Shown here piece after piece: positions 612 through 54,157 of a stretch of 64,000 bases of DNA. The notes under the pieces were generated by a model. It was given only the letters and a program-made list of their open reading frames with translations, searched no databases and was not told the DNA's origin. This DNA is from Eledone cirrhosa (taxonomy: Eukaryota). The stretch spans positions 86,614,001-86,678,000 of the forward strand of contig OZ024740.1 in assembly GCA_964016885.1 (NCBI GenBank). The letters run 5' to 3'. A program made the position numbers and the translations under genes. The first letter of the stretch is position 1, and every line of letters begins with the position of its first letter.

Positions 612-2932
612 ATGGAAAAACACTACCTGGATATGTCACTCAAAAACATACGAACCCAAGGTAGAAAGGAATATTTATTGAGTATGATTCAAAAAACTAA
701 TGAATTCATTCGACGTGTCAGGTGGAAAACGCTCCACTATGATAGAAGCCGTATGAACTCAACATTAGAAAGTGGTGTAAACAACAAATTCGGTTTTAGG
801 ACGTGTAAAAACCCACCCACCAACCCACTATTAGATGCATTTGAGCAGGACCTTATGAACTTAATCCTTAAAATTAAATTCAAAGGACGCAACACCAACA
901 ACAAATTACAGAAAGATATAAAAAAAACTACTGGACGACCTTAAAAACACCAAAGGAATTGTAGTAAAAGCGGACAAAACATCAAACTTGTATACTATGG
1001 ATTGCACTACACACAACAACTTCATTCGAAAAGAATTACATAAAAAATATAGAAAAACGAATGAAGTAACTCTTAAGCACATCAATGATGAGTCATGCGA
1101 AATAGTGAAAAATCTCGGAATCGAAGATAGGACAGGACCACTCTTACCGGCGGTACCCACCTTCAATCTTAAGGACCATAAGGTAAACTTTGATAATGAC
1201 CCTAAAATTAGATTAATCTGCCCCTCTAAATCAGATATAGGTAAAATAAGCAAATATATCTTAGATAGAATCATCCCCCAAATTAAGGCTAAGGTTAACA
1301 TTAAACTCTGGGGGAAGACCCAGGAAGCAATAAGATGGTTTAATAGCATTAGCAATAAGAATAAATCTAAGTTTATCCAGTTTGATATCGATGAATATTA
1401 CTCATCGATATCACCTGAAACTTTGAATAGAGCCATTAAGTTTGCTAAGGATAACTCTGACCTTACAAACGATGAAATTAAGATTATATTAGAAGCTAGG
1501 AAAACTATAGTCAAATTTGAGAACAGTTATTGGGTACGTAAAGATAGACCCTCTAACTTTGACATAACAATGGGCTCTAACGATTCGGCGGAAATAACTG
1601 ATATTGTGGGGTTATTTATCGCCTTTAGACTCCAGGAAAAATTCAGCAATCTCCACGGCGGAATATACCGCGACGATGTTCTCCTAGTTAAAAACCTAAA
1701 TAACCAAAAACTAGAAAAACTACGCAAAGATATAAGAAAACTACTACTCGAAATAGGACTAACTATAACATATGAATACAACCTTAAAGTAGTTAACTTC
1801 CTGGGTGTCACACTCAATTTAAACTCTGGTTTGATTAAACCGTTTCATAAATTGAATGAAAATCTCAAATACGTAAATGTTGGGTCTAACCACCCCATCT
1901 CTATAATTAAATCTATCCCTAAAAATATTTCCCTTAGAATCTCGGGTCTATCTTCTAACATACAAGTATTTAAGGAACACGCCGAGTACTACGATAACGC
2001 CCTTAGTAAAGCAGGCTACCTCAACAAAATAGAGTATATAGATGGGAACAATCAAAACACCCAAAATAAATCCCACATAGGTAAATATAATAACACAACA
2101 CCAAACCACACTTACTACCATAGTATGCACACCAGCAAACCAACAAACAAAACTAATAGAAAGCGATGCAAAGAGTACTTATGGTATAACCCCGAATACA
2201 ATAGTTCCATTAGTACAAATTTACCAGTACTCTTCTTTAAAATAATTAAGGGACATTTTCCTACATCACACAAATACCACAAAATCCTAAACCCTACCAA
2301 TATAAGACTGTCATACTCTACAGCGTTAAACCTTGAACAACACATAAAAAAGATCAATACTAGAAGGTTAAACGAAAACACTAAGAACTTAAGTGCAAAG
2401 AACACAAAAAAAAACAGTAGACAATACACTACAGAACATAAATAAACCACACCTAAGTTCGTCCGCAATACTACTCCAGAGAAAACCCAACGTACACAAC
2501 TGTAACTGCACCTATCCTGACAACTGCCCCCTCGGCAATAACTGCCTGGAAAAAAATATTATTTATAAGTGTACCATTAAATCCGGAGGCAACGAGTGGT
2601 ATTACGTGGGATCAACGGCAACATCGTTTAAATCTCGATTATATAGGCATTCTTACTCAATAAAACACCAGAGCCAAAGAAATGTAACAACTTTAGCAGA
2701 AAAAGCTTGGACGCTCAGGGATAGCGATCAAAAGTTTACCCTAAAATGGGAGAAATTAGCTAAAACCCAAAGCTTTTCCAGGAGCCAAAATTTCTGCAAA
2801 TTGTGTAATCTTGAGATTTATTACATAATCACACACAAGAAGAAATTGCTGAATAACAGAATTGAACGAACATTATTCTGCCGTCACAGAACTAAAACCC
2901 TTTTTTCCCACTACAAGCCGAATATTACATAA
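612..2932 (+). pseudogene. PLE RT + C-terminal GIY-YIG endonuclease, frameshifted near 925 and 2410
   Basis: ORFs 612-944, 988-2445 and 2393-2932 join into one protein collinear with element B; breaks lie at A-runs. Confidence 0.88.
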
Positions 2933-3102
2933 AAGAGGGACATCCCCCCAACTATATAAACCTCAATCTAGTTAGAAAAATATAATAACAATCTCTTCTC
3001 AACATATATTAATAACCTTAAATTACCACACTAATAATGGAAAGATATGCTGATGAGAATAGGTGCAAATATGCGATAATGAATGTGTCTAAAAACGTCC
3101 AT

Positions 3103-3200
3103 AAGTATGTATATATATGTGAAAATGTATATAAACAAGTAAATATATATATATGTTTGCTGTGTATAGTTAGATGTAAGTGTATTCATGTATTAAAGTG

Positions 3201-3258
<58 letters not shown>

Positions 3259-3356
3259 CACTTTAATACATGAATACACTTACATCTAACTATACACATC
3301 AAACATATATATATATTTACTTGTTTATATACATTTTCACATATATATACATACTT
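3103..3356. repeat. Near-perfect palindrome, ~100 bp arms centred on (TA)n
   Basis: 3103-3203 is the reverse complement of 3256-3356 with about one mismatch. Confidence 0.9.
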
Positions 3357-4050
3357 TTCCATGCTGCCTGTCTGTTTCGTTCCTTGTATCTTTACCACTT
3401 CTAGCAGTCTCCCTCTCTGTTACTCTCTCCTCAACTTTCACTCACTCATTCTCTGTCACTACCTCTCCTCCTCCTCTTTCCTCATCCTCCTTCAAGTTTG
3501 ACCTGTGTGTAATTCTTTTCTCGCGCAGTCTTGACCGAGCTGGTATGGAATTTTTTTCTCTCTCTCTTTCGTCTGTGACTTCACAAAACTTGCGTTTACC
3601 GAATTCATAGACCAGACCACCTTATCTTCTTCTTCTTCTTCTTCTTCTTCTTCTTCTTCTTCTTCTTCTTCTTCTTCTTCTTCTTCTTCTTCTTCTTCTT
3701 CTTCTTCTTCTTCTTCCTCTTCTCTCCTTTCTCTTTCTCTCTCTCTCTCTTTTTTCCCCCCGTCAAACTTGGGCGAAATTCTTTCCTTGCTCACATTTCT
3801 ACCAGGTTCGATGGTCTTTCGTCTCTTGTTCACGATTTCACAGAGTTTATATTCATAGAGATCTGGGACTTGTCTATTTCTACTCACTTTCCGTTGCTTA
3901 AACCCTTTTTGTTGTTACTCTAGCGTCCCCCTTTATTTACGTGTCCCAACGACTTTTTTTAGCCGTTGTTCGCACCAACCTGAGGCATATGGCCCTTAAA
4001 GCGATGAAATGCCGAGGACGGTTGGAGGGTCACTGATGAAGGACTCACTT

Positions 4051-4084
<34 letters not shown>

Positions 4085-4087
<3 letters not shown>

Positions 4088-4268
4088 GAAGGAATTGTGG
4101 TAAGGAACCAGGTGGACCTTAACGCACCAGAGTACTCGATACTTTGGGTAGTAGAGTGGGTAATAGGAAAAGGTTCAGGACTCCGACGGCAGAGCTCAAG
4201 CCGTTTCGACGGTTATTTCCGTTGAAACGGCTTGAGCTTTGCCATCGGGGTCCTGAACCTTTTCCTAT
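4085..4268. mobile_element. Fold-back of two opposed PLE-type 3' ends containing HHR 3' halves, between (TA)n tracts
   Basis: Arms ~4163-4212 and ~4219-4268 with 4 substitutions; homologous to 50815-50860; left extension homologous to 38550-38600 and 51550-51621. Confidence 0.75.
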
Positions 4269-4270
4269 AA

Positions 4271-4374
<104 letters not shown>

Positions 4375-4614
4375 CTATATGTATATGTATATATATAGAG
4401 AGAGAGATGCGTGCGCCTGTGCATGTACGTATATGTGTATGCGAATGCGTACGTGTGAGAGTATGTGGTGTACATGTAAGCATATATATGTATGTATACA
4501 TTCCTATACAGACTTAATGAAATAACTGGCTTGGAACTGAAGCTGGTCTTTGGACATAATTTGTCTGTATTAGTCTACTTCAACTGCGTTTGCCTGCATG
4601 TATTTATTGATTAA

Positions 4615-4927
4615 ACACTTACACATTCACACGCATGCACATTCACACGTACACAGTCACACACGCATGCACATTCACACGAACACAGTCACACACGCAT
4701 GCACATTCACACGTACACAGTCACACACGCATGCACATTCACACGTACACAGTCACACACGCATACACATTCACACGAACACAGTCACACACGCATGCAC
4801 ATTCACACGTACACGGTCACACACGCATGCACATTCACACATCAAATACACATATACATAAATAAACATTCTCTGACACATTCACACATACACATATACA
4901 TATATAGACAATATTTGGCACACGCAC

Positions 4928-4958
<31 letters not shown>

Positions 4959-5243
4959 TATACATAAATAGACATTCTCTGACACACATACACATACACA
5001 TATACATACACATACACATACACATACACATACGCATATACATAAATAGATATTCTCTGACACACACACACACACATACATATACACATATACATTCACT
5101 GACACACACGCGCATACACATACACATACACACAGACATATACATAAATAGACATTCTCTGACACACACGCACATACATATACATGTACACACACACATA
5201 CACATACACATAAATAGACATTCTCTGACACACACATACATAT

Positions 5244-5274
<31 letters not shown>

Positions 5275-5419
5275 TACATATACATATACATATACATAAA
5301 TAGAGATTCTCTGACACACACACAGACATACATATACATATACACATACACATATATATATACATACACATAAATAGAAATTCTCTAACACACATACACA
5401 CATACATATACATATATAC

Positions 5420-5450
<31 letters not shown>

Positions 5451-6202
5451 AACACATACACATACACATATACATAAATAGAGATTCTCTGACACACACA
5501 TACATATACATATACATATACATATACACATACACATACACATATACATACACATACACATACACATACACATATACATGCACATACACATATACATACA
5601 CATACATAAATAAATATTCTCTGACACACACATACATATACATATATACATACACATACACATACATATATACATACACATACACATACATATACACATA
5701 CGCATATACATATACATATACATAAATAGAGATTCTCTGACACGCACACACACATACATATACATATATACATAAATATACACATACACATATACGTATA
5801 CATAAATAGAGATTATCTGACACACACGCACACATACATATACATATATACATACACATACACATTCACATATACATAAATAGAGATTTTCTGACGCGCA
5901 CACACACACATACATATACATATATACATACACATACACATACACATAAATAGAGATTCTCTGACACACACACATACATATACATATATACATACACATA
6001 TACATATACATATACATAAATAGAGATTTTCTGACGCGCACACACACACATACATATACATATATACATACACATACACATACACATAAATAGAGATTCT
6101 CTGACACACACACATACATATACATATATACATACACATACACATATACATATACATAAATAGAGATTTTCTGACACACACACGCATACATATAATATAT
6201 AC

Positions 6203-15770: not shown

Positions 15771-16840
15771 TTACATATTTGTGTAAAATGTATGATACTG
15801 TATAGTATAGTTGAAACTGACGCTGAAATATTTGAAATAATCAATATTGTTGATGTAAGTTTCTTTCGGTAGGTTGATGTATTTCTTGTTAATTGGGGTT
15901 TTGTTTAAGCGTTCACACAAGCTGGGTAGTTTCACGTTTTCAAAAGCTTTTGTGTAGTCAATGAAGGTGATGTGCACAGGGTTGTTGAATTCTATTGATT
16001 TCTCAATGATTTGTTCAGAGGGATGTACTGTCAGCACTTCTTTTCTGTATAGTTATAGCTGCATTTATCTACCAAACTGAAAAATGCTCCTCTGGCTACC
16101 AAATAGGAGTTAAAATCCTATCAAATCTTAGCTATGCAGACGATCTGGCCATCATGATTTACTCTAGAACTGATCTGCAAAACTTTCTGAATGTACTGGC
16201 CAAACATTCGCTGGAGGCTGGCTTACACATCAACATCTCCAAAACAAAGCGTATGACAACTGATAAAAACAATGCCAATCTCCAACACACAATCTACAAG
16301 CAGAAAATTGCTCAAGTTACGGAGTTTATATATCTCGGTAACAAACTTTCATCAAACAACAATAGAATGGTCGCTGCACAGTATTGCATTGCTCTAGGTT
16401 GGGAAATTTTCAACAAGAACAAGGAAGTACTAACATCAAAACGAGTTTCCTATCATTTGAAGGCTCTAGATATGTGATACTTACATCCTACCAGTTGACT
16501 GTGTTTATTAGACAAGCTCTCTACATTCCAGAACCACATCATGAGACTTATGACTGGCAAGCGGCTCAGCGACCATATCTGTATCAGTGAACTGCTCAAC
16601 ATCACCAGGCTTAGACCAATCACATCAGTTGTCAGGTCAAGAGTGCTTAAACTGTACGGTTATATAAAACGATTTTAGGTTATACCTAGAAGGAAAGTTG
16701 GTTCGGCAGCCAAAATGATGGCTTGACAATGTCAACTTATGGAGTGAACTTGACCTTTGCTCTTTAAACTCTGCTGTTGGGGATTGAACTTTGTGGAGTA
16801 AAATATCTCATGTTGGTGCACAGTCTGCAACTGGCGGAGG
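15771..16840. mobile_element. Degraded RTE-like LINE RT with inverted 5' part
   Basis: Minus 15771-16037: QIIEKSIEFNNPVHITFIDYTKAF. Plus from ~16080: LSYADDLAI, GLHINISKTK, FIYLG. Confidence 0.75.
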
Positions 16841-17552
16841 TTAATATCTGGATATATATATATATATATACATTGAATAACGAATGTTTGCATTCAAACC
16901 TAGTGTACAGGTGCTCGGTTGAGTCGGGCAACCAAACCTTGCACTACATAGGCAGCACTGCAAACACCTTCAAAACTCGTTGGTAAACGCATCGTTACGC
17001 AATAAAGCACCACCAACACCGTTACGTAACGACTCTCGCCGACAAAATTTGGCACTTAAAAGGGAATAACCGACAATACACCCTTAAATGGACCAAACTC
17101 TCACATGCTCCTCCATACCGGAGTGGGATGAAAACGTGCCCGTTGTGTAATAATGAGCTCTTCCATATCCTAAGCTCAAGCCACCAACTACTAAACAACA
17201 AAATTGAAAGGTCAATTTTTTGCCAGCATAAACTGAAAGCGAAATTCTCACACTTCAAACCTTCAACTAAATCTTAACACTACCTTTCTTTCTACCCTAA
17301 ATAACAATTCCACACTCCTAAAAATAGACTATATATGAAATTTAATACTTTCTTCCTTCATCTATACTCTGGTAAGACTTTCGCCTGTCCACTATCAAAT
17401 GCCACTTAAAATTATATCTTCCTGCTCTCTCCCTCTACTCATCACAACTTTTAGCACACAACCCTCCTCCCCCTCCCTTCTTGTAACTTAACTATATTCT
17501 ATACAAATCCTCTCACACCACCTATCTCTTTCTTTCTCTCCCTACCTCCATC

Positions 17553-17637
<85 letters not shown>

Positions 17638-17707
17638 GCTCTCTCTCTCTGTTCCTCTATCTTACACTACTACCCCTTATTTCATTTCCTAAGGTCATTC
17701 CAACTTT

Positions 17708-17808
17708 GTATTTTGAAAATTCGGATGCTACAGTATCTTTCTTGATTGCCTATTATTACATAGTGTAGCAATAATGGACTGAAATTCTGATGAAACAATT
17801 GTTAATAC
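17708..17808 (+). ncRNA. Type I HHR, U3-A8 core, ~72 nt helix II (upstream pLTR of B)
   Basis: GTATT-TTGAAAA-T-TCGGA..TCTGA-T-GAAACAATTGTT^AATAC; inner stem TGCTACA/TGTAGCA; palindromic stem III. Confidence 0.65.
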
Positions 17809-18039
17809 GTGGATTAAATTCTTTTGTAACTGTTTACCTTCGTCCTATTTCTCTCTTCTTTGATTACACTCCTCGTTTGTTCGTGTTTCCACTACTGAAT
17901 CCCTACCAACCTGTTGAGTCATCTTAACGTATGTTGAGAACTTTCCTCACAACTTGTTCTACCAAGCTTTGGAATACTCCTAATTACTGAATTTATGCTC
18001 CTATCTGGTTGAGCCACCACTTCAACTTACGCCTTGGAC

Positions 18040-20375
18040 ATGGAAAAACATTACATCGGTATGTCCCTAAAGAATATACCTTTACCCAAAAGGAAGGATT
18101 ACACTCTTGGAATGATCCAGCGCACCAACGATTTCATACGCCGCGTAAGATGGAAAACAATCCACTTCGACAAAGGACGTAAGGATTATACCGCGAACTC
18201 TGGAAAGAATACATATGGGTTCAACTCCTGTAAAAACCCACCCACTAACCCTCTACTGGACGCCTTCGAACAGGACTTACTTAAGATGGTCATGAATACT
18301 AAATATAAGAAGTTCAAAACCAACAAGCTTCATAATGACATGGATACCTTTCTAAACAAGCTGCGCACCACTAACGGGATTATTGTCAAAGCGGATAAAA
18401 CATCTAACGTGTACACAATGGACATTAATACTTACCACGACCTTATACGGAAGGAATTACATAAAAAATATAAGAAAACTAATAACAAAGCACTACTTAA
18501 CATCAACAAACAAGCACACCATATTGTCAAAAGTCTAGAACTTGAAGATAGAACTGAGCCCATGACAACTTGCACCCCCACCTTTAATCTTAAGGACCAC
18601 AAATTAGATTTCCTAGATAAACCCACAATTAGATTAATATGCCCTTCTAAGTCAGACATAGGTAAAATTATCAAGCATATTTTAGATAGAATAATAATAC
18701 AATTAAGGAATAAACTAGTTATTAAACTTTGGGACAATACTAGCGACACAATTAAATGGTTTAATAGTATAGATAACAAAAATACCTCTAACTTTATACA
18801 ATTAGACATTAATGACTATTACTCCTCCATATCACCCGATACTCTAAACAAGGCACTAGCATTTGCGAAAGCCAACTCTGACTTAACCGACGACGAAATA
18901 AACATTATCCTAGCAGCTAGAAAGACGATAATTAAATTTGAAAATAACTTTTGGGTACATAAGGATAGAATAGATAACTTTGACATAACTATGGGTGCTA
19001 ATGACTCAGCACAAGTTACGGATATTGTTGGTATATACATAGCCCACACCTTACATAATAAATTTAGTTACCTTCAAGGCGGAATATATAGAGATGACGC
19101 TCTCCTATTAGTTAAAAACATGAATAAACAAAACATAGAGCGAACCCGTAAGAGCATTAGAAGAACCCTAGATAGCCTTGGCCTTAAAATCACCTACGAA
19201 TATAGTACCAAAGTAGTTAACTTCCTAGATGCCACCTTCAACCTCAACACCCAAATTATCACACCCTTTCACAAAAACAATGAGAACCTCACCTACATCC
19301 ACACTAGCTCTAACCACCCACTATCTATTATAAGGTCCGTGCCACATAGTATATCACTTAGAATATCCCGCCTCTCATCTAACCAACAAATATTCGATCA
19401 ACACGCTGAATACTACAACACTGCATTAGAACGGGCTGGCCACACCGACAAACTAGAATACATGGACCGACACAACCATAAAACACATAACCATAGACAC
19501 GCCAAACGCCCCACAAACACCCGCACACTCGCACCTAGACCCCCTAATACTAACCACACCACAAATACAACAGCAACATCAAAGCAAAACAGAACACGGA
19601 GTAGATCTTACATTTGGTATAATCCTATTTTTAACTCTTCTATTAGCTCTAACTTACCTTCCACATTCTACAAAATTATAAAAAAACACTCTCCAAATTC
19701 ACATAAATATAGTAGTATACTTAATACCAAAACAATTAGACTATCTTATTCCACTGCACCAAACCTAGACGCACACATTAAGATGCTCAACTCCAAAAAA
19801 CTCCGTAACAACAACACCCCAATCACTCAACACAATAATACACCTAATACACAACCACCCACTAACAAACAGTTGCACAAAACACACTCACACACACATC
19901 CCAGCCCACCTATAACTCCACCACTGCCCATAACAGAAATTGTAATTGCCACCTTCCAGAGACTTGTCCATTGAATAACGAATGTTTGCATTCAAACCTA
20001 GTGTACAGGTGCTCGGTTGAGTCGGGCAACCAAACCTGGCACTACATAGGCAGCACTGCAAACACCTTCAAAACTCGTTGGTACACGCATCGTTACGCAA
20101 TAAAGCACCACCAACACCGTTACGTAACGACTCTCGCCGACACAATTTGGCACTTAAAAGGGTATAACCGACAATACACACTTAAATGGACCAAACTCTC
20201 ACATGCTCCTCCATACCGGAGTGGGATGAAAACGTGCCCGTTGTGTAATAATGAGCTCTTCCATATCCTAAGCTCAAGCCACCAACTACTAAACAACAAA
20301 ATTGAAAGGTCAATTTTTTGCCAGCATAAACTGAAAGCGAAATTCTCACACTTCAAACCTTCAACTAAATCTTAA
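18040..20375 (+). CDS. PLE RT + GIY-YIG endonuclease, intact except one frameshift in the linker (~19870-19930)
   Basis: 646 aa ORF with FIQLDINDYYSSI, TMGANDSAQ, GGIYRDD; shifted frame RNCNCHLPETCPLNNECL..LVY..YIGST..CPLC..LLN..CQH. Confidence 0.85.
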
Positions 20376-20653
20376 CACTACCTTTCTTTCTACCCTAAAT
20401 AACAATTCCACACTCCTAAAAATAGACTATATATGAAATTTAATACTTTCTTCCTTCATCTATACTCTGGTAAGACTTTCGCCTGTCCACTATCAAATGC
20501 CACTTAAAATTATATCTTCCTGCTCTCTCCCTCTACTCATCACAACTTTTAGCACACAACCCTCCTCCCCCTCCCTTCTTGTAACTTAACTATATTCTAT
20601 ACAAATCCTCTCACACCACCCTATCTCTTTCTCTTTCTCTCCCTGCCTCCATC

Positions 20654-20724
<71 letters not shown>

Positions 20725-20797
20725 GCCGCTCTCTCTCTCTGTTCCTCTATCTTACACTACTACCCCTTATTTCATTTCCTAAGGTCATTCCAACTTT

Positions 20798-20898
20798 GTA
20801 TTTTGAAAATTCGGATGCTACAGTATCTTTCTTGATTGCCTATTATTACATAGTGTAGCAATAACGGACTGAAATTCTGATGAAACAATTGTTAATAC
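20798..20898 (+). ncRNA. Second copy of the element B HHR (downstream pLTR)
   Basis: Same motif 3090 nt downstream. Confidence 0.65.
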
Positions 20899-20947
20899 GA
20901 GGATTAAATTCTTTTGTAACTGTTTACCTTCGTCCTATTTCTCTCTT

Positions 20948-21005
<58 letters not shown>

Positions 21006-21156
21006 CTACTTCAAGACTAGAAACAGATAGTGACGTAACCACTACCATGATAGTCGTTATATCGATCTTCCACAATCAATCGGCCCTCTGAAACTATCGT
21101 AAAAAAATGAACTAATTAACTACCTATTTCTGATATATATATATATATATATATAC

Positions 21157-21803
21157 AAATGGAATCTTAGTAAAATCGAACCTTTGGCTGTGGCCAAACA
21201 AAGTCGACCTACAATTAGGAATGAGTAGCAAAGCACTCAATAAGGGTAGGTCCTCAGAGTAATAACGTTACGTTTAGAAAGCTTGGCAAATTGAAAATTG
21301 CAGCAGGCAAAACCCAGCCACACAATACCAAAACAACGAAAAAACTAATCAGATTAGACAACAGACCTTGACAAATCGAACGATATTCTGCAGGTTTCTA
21401 TGATTTCGAAATCATCAATCCAACTTACGCAATACGTAGCTTGTGGTATTCTATGATCGAACAGGTATTTCGTTCTAGGCCTCAAACCGGTATGAACTCA
21501 GGACGACTGCTACAATAGACAGCATTCAGTCTTTCGTTGTCACGTGTTATTTCCAACAAGGGAAGTAACCCCCGGTTTTTGGCGGCCAAACTCAAAGTGT
21601 GAACAAAGGAAAATAATTCCGCTCAACATTCCGAATAAAAGCTCTCGACTTGACGTTATTAAACAAACATAAATAATTAACCAATCAACAGAATTGTCTA
21701 ATTAAATTAATTAATTAATTATTAGGTCTAGGAGATAATAATACAAGTAGAAGCTTAGTAAAATCGAAGCTTTGGCTGCGGCCAAGTAAAAGCGACCTGC
21801 AAT

Positions 21804-21835: not shown

Positions 21836-21997
21836 AATATCCACGGTTAGTTGTGGGGTCTAGTCCGCATGAAGAACTCAATATAATCCATATGTTGAAA
21901 ATGTTGTAGGTTAAAATAAATCACGGAAAACAATAAAACATCAAAAGGAAAACAGAGTCATGATATAAGTTAATACAATGAAATAAAAATTCAAGTC

Positions 21998-22302
21998 ATT
22001 AGGAATATACTTCACTGCTTTACGATCGTTTCTAGGTGATAATAGTACATCGTACGCATATTTCGTTATCGATTTATGTAAGGTTAGTTACAAAATATCA
22101 AATAAGGAATATATTTACCTACGTGTATATCGTCAGCCGTTGTAAAAAAGCTTTTGACAACGGCTGACGATATACACGTAGGTAAATATATTCCTTATTT
22201 GATATTTTGTAACTAACCTTACATAGAACGATAACAAAATATGCGTACGATGTATTATTATCACCTAGAAACGATCGTAAAGCAGTGAAGTATATTCCTA
22301 AT
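21998..22302. repeat. Fold-back palindrome with ~150 bp arms centred on AAG|CTT (22150/22151)
   Basis: Arms reverse-complementary with about 5-6 differences. Confidence 0.92.
22150..22283 (+). ncRNA. Type I HHR, U3-A8 core, ~107 nt helix II
   Basis: GCTT-TTGACAA(22154-60)-insert-GAAACGATCGTA^AAGC; stem III palindrome ACGATCGT. Confidence 0.6.
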
Positions 22303-23145
22303 TTTTTCTCTTTTTTCTGGGTTAGAAAATGTTTAAAACAAAATATTTTACTTTGTGGGAAGTGTTAAGGTATTAGTTAATTTATTTGTTAATTAACAGT
22401 GCCATTTATTTATTTATTTATATATTTAATAATTGTCTATTACCAGTTTCAGCATTTTATGCATTATCAAAGGGGGGAATTTGTATTGGTGTAAAATGGT
22501 GATGTTGAACATGTTAAGGAAATGGTGAAGAAAGAATAATGTTATTTACAAACAAGGTTTTTGAAGTGAAAAGATTAAAGAAAAAAAAGAGGGTAATGTG
22601 GAACATGATAAGATAATGGGAAAGAAAAAAAAAAATTATTTACAAGCATAGTTCTTGAAGATAAGCAGTTCAAAATGTGTTATTATGGCAAGAGTGCTTA
22701 TTTGATCCATGATGGAGGCAAATTGTAGTCTGGGGTTTGATATGATTTCCCTTTTTAGAGAGTTAATATTCAGGGGAGGTAATTCAGGGTGGTCATGTAG
22801 GGGAGAGAGAAATGAGAGGGGGTAATTCATTTATATAAGAAAAAGGATTAAGTAGGGTGTCAGGGAGGTAACTCTTTAGAGAACATAGGAATTAGTTTAG
22901 TCCGAAGTTTAGTCCATTAAGTAGAGGTTGGAATTTGTTAATGAAGTATGTTTCTTAGACAATTATTAAATATATAAATAAATAAATAAATGTCATTGTT
23001 AATTAATAAACAAATTAACTAATACCTTAACACTTCACACAAAGTAAAATATTTTGTTTTAAACATTTTCTAACACAGAAAAAAGAGAAAAAATAAAAGG
23101 GAAAAATAATATTTTTCTTCCTAATAATCGTCTTTTTCTCCCTAT

Positions 23146-38923: not shown

Positions 38924-39588
<665 letters not shown>

Positions 39589-39687: not shown

Positions 39688-42947
<3,260 letters not shown>

Positions 42948-43057: not shown

Positions 43058-43352
43058 TATATAAGATCAAAAGATGGTTAAATGAGTTCCATGTATTTTA
43101 TTATGCGCATTTCAAAAACAAATATCATCATGCAATAACATTTGTGTTTTCATCAGATAAAATAGGAGGACATGATATGAAGGTTAAAAAACATTTGTGG
43201 ATAGTGCAGTTTTAAAACCACAAGTGATTTTTAACCTTCATATCATGTCCTCCTATTTTATCTAATGAAAACACAAATGTTATTGCATGATGATATTTGT
43301 TTTTGAAATGCGCATAATAAAATACATGGAACTCATTTAACCATCTTTTGTT

Positions 43353-43680: not shown

Positions 43681-43721
43681 CGATGCTGACGATAGCTAAT
43701 AAGCTTGAAACTAGTACATCG
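43681..43721 (+). ncRNA. Minimal HHR in retrozyme-like copy 2 (~43500-43810)
   Basis: CGATG-CTGACGA..GAAACTAGTA^CATCG with perfect stem I. Confidence 0.85.
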
Positions 43722-44908: not shown

Positions 44909-44949
44909 CGGTGTTGACGATAGCTAATAAGCTTGAAACTAGTACATCG
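44909..44949 (+). ncRNA. Minimal HHR in retrozyme-like copy 3 (~44878-45160), core TTGACGA
   Basis: Same motif with C3U. Confidence 0.75.

Positions 44950-47376: not shown

Positions 47377-47382
<6 letters not shown>
47037..47382. repeat. Fold-back palindrome, ~155 bp arms with nested central hairpin, in (TA)n
   Basis: One mismatch between arms; inner palindrome 47184-47224. Confidence 0.93.
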
Positions 47383-47462
<80 letters not shown>

Positions 47463-47759: not shown

Positions 47760-50315
47760 CATAACTGTATATTTATGCCTGATTTTAAATACAGTCTATT
47801 CTACTATCATACATTAAGGGTCTCTTTAGATTGTTATCTATTCATTACTGGACAAGGTATATGTTATGAAGGATTATACAGCTGTTAATGTCATAATAGA
47901 TATGCTCTATGTTTAATAATATAATCCCTAATATACAATGCTATTACATTTTATATTTAATTATAAATGTATATATACTTTATTATTATTATGTTGAGTA
48001 ATTTAAGCATTTAATTATACAATTATAAATGCACATATAGTTTATTATCACATATTGCATTAAATGTCTCTACATACCAAGTGCCAAATATCCATTACTG
48101 TATATGATATAATTAATCTATTGTAGTTATATCACAAGGTGGTAACTCTATGTCTAATTCTAACTGCTATTACAGAGCATAAGGTTATAGATGGATAGGA
48201 GTTGTGTAGAGGAAAGAGTTGGTCGAGTGGTTTGTGGTTGTGGGTGCTGCTAACTCCTAGATGTGTAGTGTTAATGGTGGTGGGGAATTCAAATCTGACA
48301 TTGTTGTATACTAACAGCTAGGTTTAAAGTTATGGAACGAGTGCCGGTACCGGTGTTGGCACGAGGAAAATGTCTCTGACTTTCTATTAAGGAGGTATAG
48401 TTTCGAAAAGATTATAGTATTGGTCTCCAGAAGGCAGAGACTACACAATTTGTTCAGTGGTTTATACGATGAGACCTTACCTACTACATCCCATTGCAGT
48501 GGAGGTGCGAGTTGTATCTCGTCTTGAAGTTGTTCGAAGTAGAAGCTATATATGTTTTAGAAGAGTTGTTTGCGTTGACGGTGCATGAGTAGATGATGTC
48601 TTTGGTTAAACAATTATTACCTAAGAGGCAAGTTCTATTAGTTCTACAGTTACATTTATTCTGGGTGTTAGCTTACCGGTTCCTATGTTGTGAAGAATTC
48701 TGGTTGCTAGGGATAGCACTAGGGTAATGATGTCTATCATTCGTATTGCTATTGATTTCATGAGTGCTATTACCATTATTACTATTATTACTACTATTGT
48801 TTACAGGTACTAAGTTTACCTCCCGTTGTGTTTTAATTAGTTGGAAATAGTTATTAATCTTCCTTTTATTACTACTAGCTATATGGTATGCTATGTTAGG
48901 TGTGGTGGAGTACGATATTTTAATTGTATTTTTATTGATAAGGCTATGGTACTTGTGGCCGGTCGGGAATTTTTTTTCTAAGATTGAGAAGAAAGCCTTA
49001 GGCAAGTTGGTAGAGATTGAAGACTGTATTAGTTCTCCTTCTATTTTTGTTTATAGTATTGTTTTTTTAGGTATTTATATCCCTGTTTATATTATTATCG
49101 TGGTGTTTACTTTGGTGCGAGTTAAGTTTGGTATTAATCTTCGTCTTAGAGTTATAGTGGCTACTGTTTTTACTATTTTTCCTCATGGCCATATTATGAG
49201 AAATAATGTTGTAACTATGTGATTTTATAGGTAGGAATTCAATCTCATTCCTATGTCCTTATTTAGCTAAGGCCTCATTATAGCATTGTGAATTATTGTT
49301 AAATATAGTTTCGTTATATGATAGATTAGAGATTCTATTAGATATTCCTTTGGTAATAGAGTTTAATATGGATTTAGGGTGGTTAGAGTTGGTGTTCACA
49401 TAAATTAGTTTTTCGTTAGGTTTATGATAGTGTGTGTATATTCTAGAGTCTAGGCTAAAGGTAGCATCAAGGAAGTTGACGTGTTTAGTGTTTTTATCTA
49501 AGGTGATACTTAAGTTGTAGTTTTTGAAAATTGTGTGTAACTGTTTCCTAGTTTTTTCTATATTAAATTTTTTATAGTCTATAAGAAGAAGCGCATAATC
49601 GCGGTATAAACCACCGTTGAGGTAGGGTAGGTTCTTATGGATTTCATTGAGTAGGTATAGGCCCACCAAATCGGTGACCTGCGCCGAGTCACTAGATCCC
49701 ATGGTTATGGCAAAGTTGTTATGCGTATCCTTGAGGGTCCATAATTATTCTTCAAATGTAATTATGGTTTTTCGGGCCGCAAGTATGACATCAATTTAGG
49801 ATCTAGTCAGGTCACTATTGTTCATGGCCATAATTAGAGCCTTATTTAATAGGATAGGGAAAATAGAGGTGTAGTATGAATTGATATCAAATTGTATAAA
49901 TGTTTTATTATTACACTCTTTAATACCCTTGAACCATTCAATAACCACACCCGTATTTCCCCATTGGTTAAGGTATATTTTATGCTTAAATTGTGGGATG
50001 ATTTTATCTAATATTTTCTTGCTGATAATACCAATGTCAGACTTGGAAGGGCAAATCAGTCTAATTGAAAGGTTACTAATGAAGTCTTCTTTATGATCCT
50101 TCAGAGAGAATCTTGGGGGTTAGGGGTGTATAGCTGTGTATGTCTCTGAAGTCCTAATTTACTCACTATATTAAGGCCTTCAATATTTATATCTTCTAGG
50201 TTTTTAGTAGTAGTTTTCTTGTAGCTCCTATGCAGTTCCTTATATATAAATGTTCTATAAGTATCCTAATCTAAGCTATATATATTATTAGTTTTATCTG
50301 CATGTACTATGATTT

Positions 50316-53149: not shown

Positions 53150-54157
53150 GCACACAAATAAACATACATATCTTTACTTCTATAGAAAATCTGAACTCTG
53201 ACACCCCAGCGAACTAACCGTATTCACTGAACCAGAACAATTCTCCCAATCCCATTTCTCTTGACCACTATCTTTCCCTTGTCATAACATTCTCTATAAA
53301 GGCTACAGAATAGATTTCCAAATAAGGGCGCAAAAATGTAATGAAAACTTGTTCACGTGACAGCCAATTTTCATTTATAACCAATCAAATCACGTTTATT
53401 AAAAAAAAGCCTTCGTGAGCCACCTTTTTTTTAAGTAAAGAAATTCAAACACACACACACACAACACACACACAAGCACACAAATAAACATACATATCTT
53501 TACATTCTTTATTCAATAGAAAATCTGAATTCTGACACCCCAGCGAACTAACCATATTCACTGAACCAGAACAATTCTCCCATCCCTTTCTCTTGACCAT
53601 TATCTTTCACTTATCATAAAATTCTCTAAAAAGGCTACAGAATGGATTTCCAAATAAGGGCACGAAAATTTAATGAAAACTTGTTCACGTGACAGCCATA
53701 ATTTCATTTATAACCAACCCCAAAAAAGCCTTCGTGAGCCCCTTTTTTCAAGTAAAAAGAAATTCAAACACTCATATATGAAAAAACAACCTGTGACAAC
53801 CCCCCCCCCTCTTATTTGAAGAACTATTGTAACGCGAACTGGCGCGAAATTTATTATAATTATTGACAAACCAATCAAATTACTTCTCGAAAAACCTGGC
53901 ATTTCGAGCCACTTTTTCCATATAAAACAAGTAACATTTAGAGACCAACCAGATGTGAGAAAAACCACAGACCCTCCATCTCAACTCTACTTTTGAAAAG
54001 CAGAAGAACTGCGAAACCGGTAAAGGAACCAAATAAATATATATATATTTTTTTAAAATAAGACTCCAGTTGCATTTTCGATTTCATCTCTTTTTCTTTA
54101 TACTTTCACTCGTGTAGGACACCTCGGTTATTTTTCAATTTGTAAAAAAAACCTCAC

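Follow-up and report, generated by a model that had tools for sequence, protein, structure and literature searches.

Several features of the hammerhead ribozymes carried by Penelope-like elements (PLEs) are already in print. As far as the consulted sections of Cervera & De la Pena (2014, PMC4209133) go, these include hammerheads in both pseudo-long terminal repeats (pLTRs) about 3 kb apart, a U3-A8 covariation in the core and dimeric folding, and the discussion of that paper proposes a circular RNA as the template for copies of more than unit length. Craig et al. (2021, PMC8557442), likewise consulted in part, described the Hydra clade of PLEs together with its hammerheads. Here we report on a PLE copy in a 64,000-nucleotide (nt) stretch of the genome of Eledone cirrhosa (assembly GCA_964016885.1, contig OZ024740.1, forward-strand positions 86,614,001-86,678,000), which we call the window and number from its first letter. 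Read from the sequence and from repeat comparison, positions 16871-20950 are a 1.3-unit PLE copy inserted in a (TA)n microsatellite. To go by its sequence, this is probably a Hydra-clade PLE in which each repeat carries a homologous hammerhead, predicted to cleave after U17803 and U20893. An earlier note, made from the letters of the window alone, had singled out these two motifs and the unit between them; its headline claim is not new, since hammerheads in the end repeats, a U3-A8 core, folding as dimers and a circular template have all been put forward in print. New in detail is that helix II of a hammerhead can lengthen to 72-92 nt without loss of the cores and stems, as it does in three families of this genome. 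Searches of the PLE-hammerhead literature, covering part of it, found no animal PLE hammerhead with a helix II of that length kept across families.

In the material consulted from Craig et al., the Hydra clade comprises C-terminal-endonuclease PLEs marked by an RWK motif, a change of DKG to DKT, a CxCX5C linker, and CxxC and CxH motifs in the endonuclease (EN). Its elements are short, insert into (TA)n and have readily detected hammerheads. File S2 of that paper lists about 30 Hydra hammerheads in the order stem I (3-7 bp), CTGANGA(T), stem II, loop 2 (3-10 nt), stem II, (T)GAA, AC..GT, H and stem I, and many of them have a T...T pair flanking stem II. According to Cervera & De la Pena (2014), hammerheads of metazoan PLEs are poor cleavers in vitro, and it seems that a short palindromic helix III equips them to act as dimers. 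For a PLE of Anolis studied in vitro, Frangieh et al. (2024, PMC11167929) found that the hammerhead needs the protein of the element and that cleavage is dispensable for insertion; no RNA-seq reads end at the cut site, and the 'tail' of these elements is explained by reverse transcription that begins, on both DNA strands, at a pair of neighbouring internal sites past the hammerhead.

The element and its two hammerhead motifs

The plus-strand open reading frame (ORF) of the element lies in two frames. The N-terminal and reverse transcriptase (RT) part, which starts MEKHY, occupies 18040-19974 and carries RWK, DKT and YRDD motifs, and the CxCX5C linker with the GIY-YIG EN part occupies 19866-20375. 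The shift of frame falls within the overlap at 19866-19974, where contigs of four runs from one study differ from the window by one letter in length. An RT followed by a C-terminal GIY-YIG endonuclease is present, though split between two frames, and this split is the one reservation to be made about the earlier description of a near-intact PLE, which is otherwise right. A protein search returned 25 relatives of the window ORF at 33-42% identity, mostly 545-806 amino acids long, of which the only named one is a hypothetical protein of the cephalopod Argonauta hians. In the full-length relatives (774-806 amino acids), an RT-like part and a C-terminal CxC...GIY-YIG part are joined in a single ORF. 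A Pfam scan recognized neither an RT nor a GIY-YIG family in the two parts of the window ORF, and four of the relatives gave the same outcome. The translations of the window ORF contain RRVRWKT, ADKTSNVY, CNCHLPETC, CPLCNNE and CQH, which correspond to RWK, DKT, CxCX5C, CxxC and CxH. (TA)n tracts form both flanks of the copy (left, 16851-16870; right, 20951-21003), and in a survey of 20 further loci of the same family with 30 3' ends, 29 of the 30 ends adjoin AT repeats. Judged by its protein motifs and its (TA)n target, the element belongs to the Hydra clade, and its identification as a PLE, which the earlier note had proposed, is borne out.

The copy begins with an upstream partial unit on the plus strand (16871-17803), the 5' pLTR, which holds the final 933 nt of a unit: a C-terminal EN fragment (16873-17274; 97% identity to its 3' copy), a 3' untranslated region with a (CT)n tract, and a hammerhead up to its cut site. 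One full unit of 3,090 nt (17804-20893, plus strand), delimited by repeat comparison, lies between the two predicted cut sites. It is followed by a plus-strand 'tail' of 57 nt (20894-20950), the opening 57 nt of a further unit, which represents the short one of two 3' end classes in this family. Two direct repeats record this layout, one between 16871-17170 and 19969-20268 (98% identity, offset 3,098) and one between 17632-17860 and 20722-20950 (99%, offset 3,090); the offsets differ because the (CT)n tracts differ in length. The two pLTRs differ by 11 substitutions in about 980 nt, in addition to microsatellite length differences, and the copy is therefore recent, not new-born; the word 'young', used in the earlier note, stands in this relative sense only. 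The family is abundant in the 3.0 Gb genome assembly: a first look at the hammerhead region gave 399 candidates, of which 40 were scored and show 97-100% identity.

Each pLTR contains a type I hammerhead motif on the plus strand. Motif 1 (17704-17812), recognized by reading the sequence and by a descriptor, opens with stem I, in which 17704-17712 pairs with 17804-17812 around a U.U mismatch at 17706/17810 (inner part 17707-17712/17804-17809). The core UUGAAAA (17713-17719) and a U (17720) follow, then stem II, formed by UCGGA (17721-17725) and UCUGA (17786-17790) and closing an interior of 60 nt, then U 17791 and GAA (17792-17794). Helix III is ACAAUUGU (17795-17802), a perfect 8-nt palindrome, and is followed by U17 at 17803, with cleavage predicted between 17803 and 17804, 237 nt upstream of the ATG at 18040. 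Motif 2 (20794-20902; predicted cut 20893/20894) differs by two substitutions, at 20865 and 20900, and its stem I has nine pairs without a break. In both repeats stem I can be read as GUAUU, extendable to CUUUGUAUU, opposite AAUAC(GUGG) past the cut site. From A9 to G12 the motif spans 72 nt. The descriptor, a pairing-pattern search of our own that was run over both strands of 16500-21400, matched these two sites and no others. The two motifs, with their U3-A8 core, 72-nt helix II and palindromic stem III, are accordingly as the earlier note had them, and the predicted cut sites lie 3,090 nt apart and bracket 17804-20893 with the whole ORF inside.

By the usual marks of a hammerhead, U4, G5, A6 and A9 as well as G12, A13 and A14 are all present, and the 3-8 pair is U-A instead of C-G. 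The motif is of type I, with three helices around the core, an A15.1-U16.1 pair and an H17 that is not G. When the upstream 139 nt were dinucleotide-shuffled 200,000 times with the 3' half held fixed, one shuffle gave so good a 5' half, the requirement being at least six pairs in stem I, at least five in stem II and an allowed core. These thresholds were chosen after the motif had been seen; with looser ones the count was 15 of 50,000. Stems I and II already form in the minimum free energy (MFE) structure.

Within helix II, positions 17745-17772 read as ATTGC..ACATAGTGT A GCAAT, a hammerhead-like relic that lacks a catalytic core (5.7 bits, E 0.094 in 301 nt, with the clade covariance model R1 introduced below). 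Its likeness is to stem I, helix III and H17 in the hammerheads of several relatives, such as those at loci L032, L034 and L037; it is not kept in the related family C, and we take it for the distal helix II stem or for a product of chance.

Related families and the CTGATGA look-alike

Two further families of the same genome carry a hammerhead with a long helix II. Family C was found with a probe from the 5' end of the ORF, where it is 77-81% identical to the family of the window (family A). Its motif, present in eight hammerhead copies at seven loci (L182-L188), reads ...TATT TTGAAAA T TTGG[..]CCAA T GAA ACGGTCGT A AATACC..., with 75 nt between A9 and G12. Across the 5' half of the motif, comprising proximal stem I, the core, the U and stem II, 16 of 17 positions are identical between family C and the window, and in the interior of helix II 33 of 63 are (52%). 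The differences within the helices preserve pairing: C-G becomes U-A and G.U becomes G-C in stem II, and A-U becomes G-C and A-U becomes G.U in helix III. In an alignment of the window with family C, stem II is paired in 100% of cells.

Family B is represented in the window itself by a second Hydra-clade PLE copy (612-2923, plus strand; 59-60% amino-acid identity to the window ORF), with a hammerhead at 305-425 on the same strand that reads TTATT CTGATGA [92 nt] GAA ACACGTGT C AATAA and so has the canonical CUGAUGA core. Its cut site lies 192 nt before the ATG, and six pairs with a single mismatch make up its stem II. Another 39 copies aligned from 30 loci conserve the motif, and the family has 1,023 first-look candidates in the genome. 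Relative to the window, family B shows compensatory differences in stem I, in the 3-8 pair (C-G versus U-A) and in helix III (ACACGUGU versus ACAAUUGU). MAFFT and BLAST alignments of the window motif with the family B region were ambiguous and were not used for single-base homology.

Compact hammerheads are widespread among more distant relatives. Among 78 relative-encoding metagenome loci, 65 have such a motif on the sense strand and 2 have one on the opposite strand. The motifs either precede the ORF by about 140-190 nt or follow it, and the window motif occupies the homologous position ahead of its own ORF; one relative (L053) has a TTGAAAA core in an otherwise compact motif. Changes on both sides were found in 14 of 16 pairs among 30 relatives, which are those with a 9-nt helix III and had been pre-selected by a pairing descriptor, a step that inflates the share of paired cells. 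The same 30 hammerheads were used to build R1, the clade covariance model.

With long-helix-II hammerheads in three families (A, B and C) and a conserved format, the window motif is, on comparative grounds, a true and selected homologue of the clade's hammerhead. Several observations weigh against it. The 10.1-11.1 position is U.U and not the G10.1-C11.1 that the consulted part of Cervera & De la Pena (2014) calls highly conserved; U.U is also found in many published Hydra-clade motifs and in 25 of the 30 relatives. The motif folds with an MFE of -17.5 kcal/mol (z 0.15), a stability like that of shuffled sequences, and a fully hammerhead-compatible fold lies 3.4 kcal/mol above the MFE. Rfam reported no hammerhead in 16500-21400 at E<=10, nor in the whole window at the gathering score. 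R1 missed both sites in the window and left the fold unscored in 17600-17900. The compensatory evidence comes from few independent lineages (A, C and B), and within family A the 32 aligned copies show only scattered single changes and have no power. To these is added an unexplained 12-nt identity with family B, taken up below. Finally, because Naiad PLEs thrive without canonical hammerheads, according to the consulted part of Craig et al. (2021), a function for the window hammerhead is not a given. As to the two search models, R1 penalizes the 60-nt insert and the U-A core, and Rfam found no hammerhead in any of 20 relatives' loci that have canonical-core motifs; since it also misses these, its silence on the window says little.

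An alternative reading is that the motif descends from a hammerhead and is now inert, its activity lost through the U3-A8 core, the U.U at 10.1-11.1 and the 60 nt inserted into helix II, in a family that spreads without it as Naiad PLEs do. The lack of a score from R1 or Rfam would suit an inert motif, as would the poor cleavage of metazoan PLE hammerheads in vitro and the dispensability of cleavage for insertion in the Anolis system. An inert motif would not, however, readily account for the comparison of families A and C, in which the core and both stems are kept, with compensatory changes, around an interior that is just 52% identical. Nor are its supposed defects peculiar to the window: the U3-A8 core also occurs in the compact hammerhead of L053 and, as far as Cervera & De la Pena (2014) was consulted, in Schistosoma PLEs, and U...U flanking stem II is common among the Hydra hammerheads seen in Craig et al. 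(2021). We therefore regard an inert descendant as unlikely, and prefer an RNA motif that is kept by selection and is probably a weak cleaver, which may act as a dimer through its palindromic helix III or together with the protein of the element, as has been reported for other PLE hammerheads.

A different doubt concerns which letters form the core. A CTGATGA at 17787-17793 on the plus strand has the look of a canonical core, but consists of the 3' strand of stem II, a U and the GA of GAAA. On one reading it is the ancestral core, helix II having been deleted, and the upstream UUGAAAA half is a chance look-alike: in CTGATGAAAC one may see a canonical core joined to GAAAC, and 12 nt (ATTCTGATGAAA) are common to the window look-alike and the true core region of family B. 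Family C speaks against this. It has ACCAATGAAAC where the window has TTCTGATGAAAC, and so lacks CTGATGA, and it retains the UUGAAAA core, stem I and stem II; CTGATGA is therefore a decoy, as the earlier note had called it when it noticed the overlap with GAAA. The family C alignment also argues against homology of the 12 shared nucleotides. Moreover, a 5' half as good as that of the window appeared in only 1 of the 200,000 shuffles, and stem I of the supposed relic would have just 3 bp. On the strength of the alignment, the shuffles and the short stem I, we rejected a relic left by helix II deletion as highly improbable, and retain UUGAAAA as the core.

Other Hydra-clade sequences and compact motifs are scattered through the window. 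A third Hydra-clade copy (48317-50307, minus strand; about 47% amino-acid identity) is 5'-truncated or decayed and ends near (TA)n at about 47380-47460; inspection by eye showed no clear hammerhead downstream of it. R1 reported four compact hammerheads on the plus strand, at 39250-39290 (E 2e-5), 43681-43721 (8e-7), 44909-44949 (0.04) and 53988-54027 (0.008), and one on the minus strand at 43097-43161 (7e-4), all five of which Rfam missed at the gathering score. Those at 39250-39290 and 43681-43721 are near-identical and 4,431 nt apart, and between them, on the opposite strand, lies a 289-amino-acid open frame with an RT-like YVDD (40622-41491, minus strand). The motif at 53988-54027 has a UUGAAAA core.

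Genomic copies and the template RNA

The copies surveyed elsewhere in the genome bear on how the family moves. Each of the 20 sampled copies is truncated at the 5' end and extends across the cut site, and all 30 3' ends lie 51-193 nt beyond it, at unit positions 193 (n=17), 185 (n=1), 81 (n=1) and 51-65 (n=11). Half of the loci (10 of 20: L140, L141, L143-L146, L152, L154, L157 and L158) are head-to-head inverted pairs, and each of the ten combines an arm ending at 193 with an arm ending at 51-81. No copy that reaches the 5' end of the ORF starts at the cut site (0 of 15); 11 of these 15 continue upstream over it, with starts scattered over unit positions 2120-3079, and the other four start 8-127 nt downstream of it. 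A second full unit is found in none of the 11 copies with an upstream part. Family B seemingly also has two end classes, its matches ending at query positions 291 and 176.

This pattern fits internal initiation at two sites on an RNA that spans the cut site, by analogy with the Anolis PLE. New copies would probably arise by target-primed reverse transcription from two internal sites, one 51-81 nt (mostly 57-65) and the other 185-193 nt past the cut site, and often on both DNA strands. Since all copies span the cut site, the template RNA contained it intact, uncut or re-ligated, and initiation at two internal sites on such an RNA would yield both a partial tandem and a 'tail'.

Whether that RNA is linear or circular is the point on which the remaining alternative turns. 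Both hammerheads might cut, the 3,090-nt unit being ligated to a circle on which rolling-circle reverse transcription would produce copies of more than unit length and hence the partial tandems. For PLEs this has been proposed before (Cervera & De la Pena 2014), and small circular RNAs have been reported, in the sources consulted, for the related non-autonomous retrozymes. A re-ligated circle would allow all 30 3' ends to lie past the cut site, and the 11 upstream partial units, which start at scattered places (2120-3079) without a pile-up at a transcription start, lean slightly the same way. Uncut read-through RNA fits the same facts, however, and none of the 11 copies with an upstream part reaches a second full unit. 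The one PLE tested in vitro needs no cleavage and shows no RNA-seq ends at its cut site (Frangieh et al. 2024). In addition, a circle copied twice would give repeats that are identical at birth, and the pLTRs of the window copy differ at 11 sites, a difference that later mutation could also have produced. Genomic copies give the circular-template explanation of the partial tandems no specific support, and they cannot discriminate between a long read-through transcript and a re-ligated circle. Divergent reverse-transcription PCR would not tell the two apart either, because the junction sequence is identical. We consider the circle rather unlikely, and favour initiation at two internal sites on an RNA that spans the cut site.

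Three further observations concern the element and its surroundings. Across the hammerhead and tail region (17678-17985), summed word depth in contig runs, a crude measure, is about ten times that of the ORF (3,000-5,500 versus about 100-350), which hints at many very short tail-end copies. At the cut sites these contigs, which could not reveal RNA ends, have neither ends nor joints; other copies seen in them end next to TA repeats. Directly upstream of the element, an open frame on the plus strand (16010-16477) has an RT-like YADD motif and is perhaps a fragment of a long interspersed nuclear element. Downstream, at 21985-22315, lies an inverted repeat of 164 nt whose arms are 93% complementary and separated by a 3-nt spacer.

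Comparison with described systems

The closest described counterparts are the Hydra-clade hammerheads in the consulted part of Craig et al. (2021). The likeness extends to the type of element, with RWK, DKT, CxCX5C, a C-terminal GIY-YIG, (TA)n and pLTRs, and to the ribozyme: its order of parts, the extra U after the core, the U before GAA, an AC..GT helix III, an H17 of A, U or C, and a place near the end of the unit. The published motifs, in contrast, have CUGANGA cores and a loop 2 of 3-10 nt, where the window has UUGAAAA and 72 nt from A9 to G12, a length exceeded by family C (75 nt) and by family B, which combines 92 nt with a canonical core. Helix III of the window is a perfect 8-nt palindrome, unlike the published Hydra motifs, and its unit of 3.09 kb compares with Hydra PLEs that are 'generally <3 kb'.

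Long-helix-II motifs escape Rfam, the clade-specific model and searches guided by published loop sizes, which is a warning about standard searches. They also bear on reports of PLE clades without hammerheads or with only 'half cores' 35-50 nt apart; the latter were described for Naiads, and File S2 of the same paper, in the part consulted, includes spike-moss PLE-X motifs with 29-35-nt loops, which the file itself marks as deviating.

Several features of the window hammerheads recur in the minimal hammerheads that Cervera & De la Pena (2014) describe for metazoan PLEs, among them the U3-A8 variant of Schistosoma Cercyon. These minimal motifs lie in both pLTRs about 3 kb apart, show the U3-A8 covariation, have an unpaired nucleotide after position 9, and possess a short palindromic helix III that points to dimers. 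They differ in being compact, helix II having 6-8 bp and opening with G10.1-C11.1, whereas the window has a long, irregular helix II and U.U.

In animal non-LTR retrozymes, as in the window, type I hammerheads whose helix III is weak stand on both sides of a unit, and circular RNA has been reported for the retrozymes in the sources consulted. Retrozymes are small and non-coding, whereas the window unit is 3.09 kb long and codes for RT and EN, and its circle is only hypothesized. One speculative way to connect the two is that the structured insert of 60-90 nt in helix II, kept in three families, is a working module, a protein-binding or switching arm that would make cleavage and re-ligation depend on the protein of the element, such that a coding RNA of 3.09 kb is trimmed to unit length, circularized and copied by rolling circle. 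We think this quite unlikely; if true, it would make the element an autonomous, protein-coding counterpart of the retrozyme circles.

The Poseidon PLE of Anolis carolinensis (Frangieh et al. 2024) offers the nearest parallel for the copy ends. As in the window family, there are two discrete end sites downstream of the hammerhead, both strands are involved, the target is AT-rich and the template spans the cut site. Poseidon belongs to another clade, however, and its sites are 30-40 nt apart within the ORF, whereas those of the window family are about 130 nt apart, lie upstream of the ORF and are known from genomic copies. A young family with hundreds of copies, two sharp 3' end classes and regular inverted pairs of long and short tails provides a good natural record against which the model of two start sites, worked out in vitro for Poseidon, can be tested.

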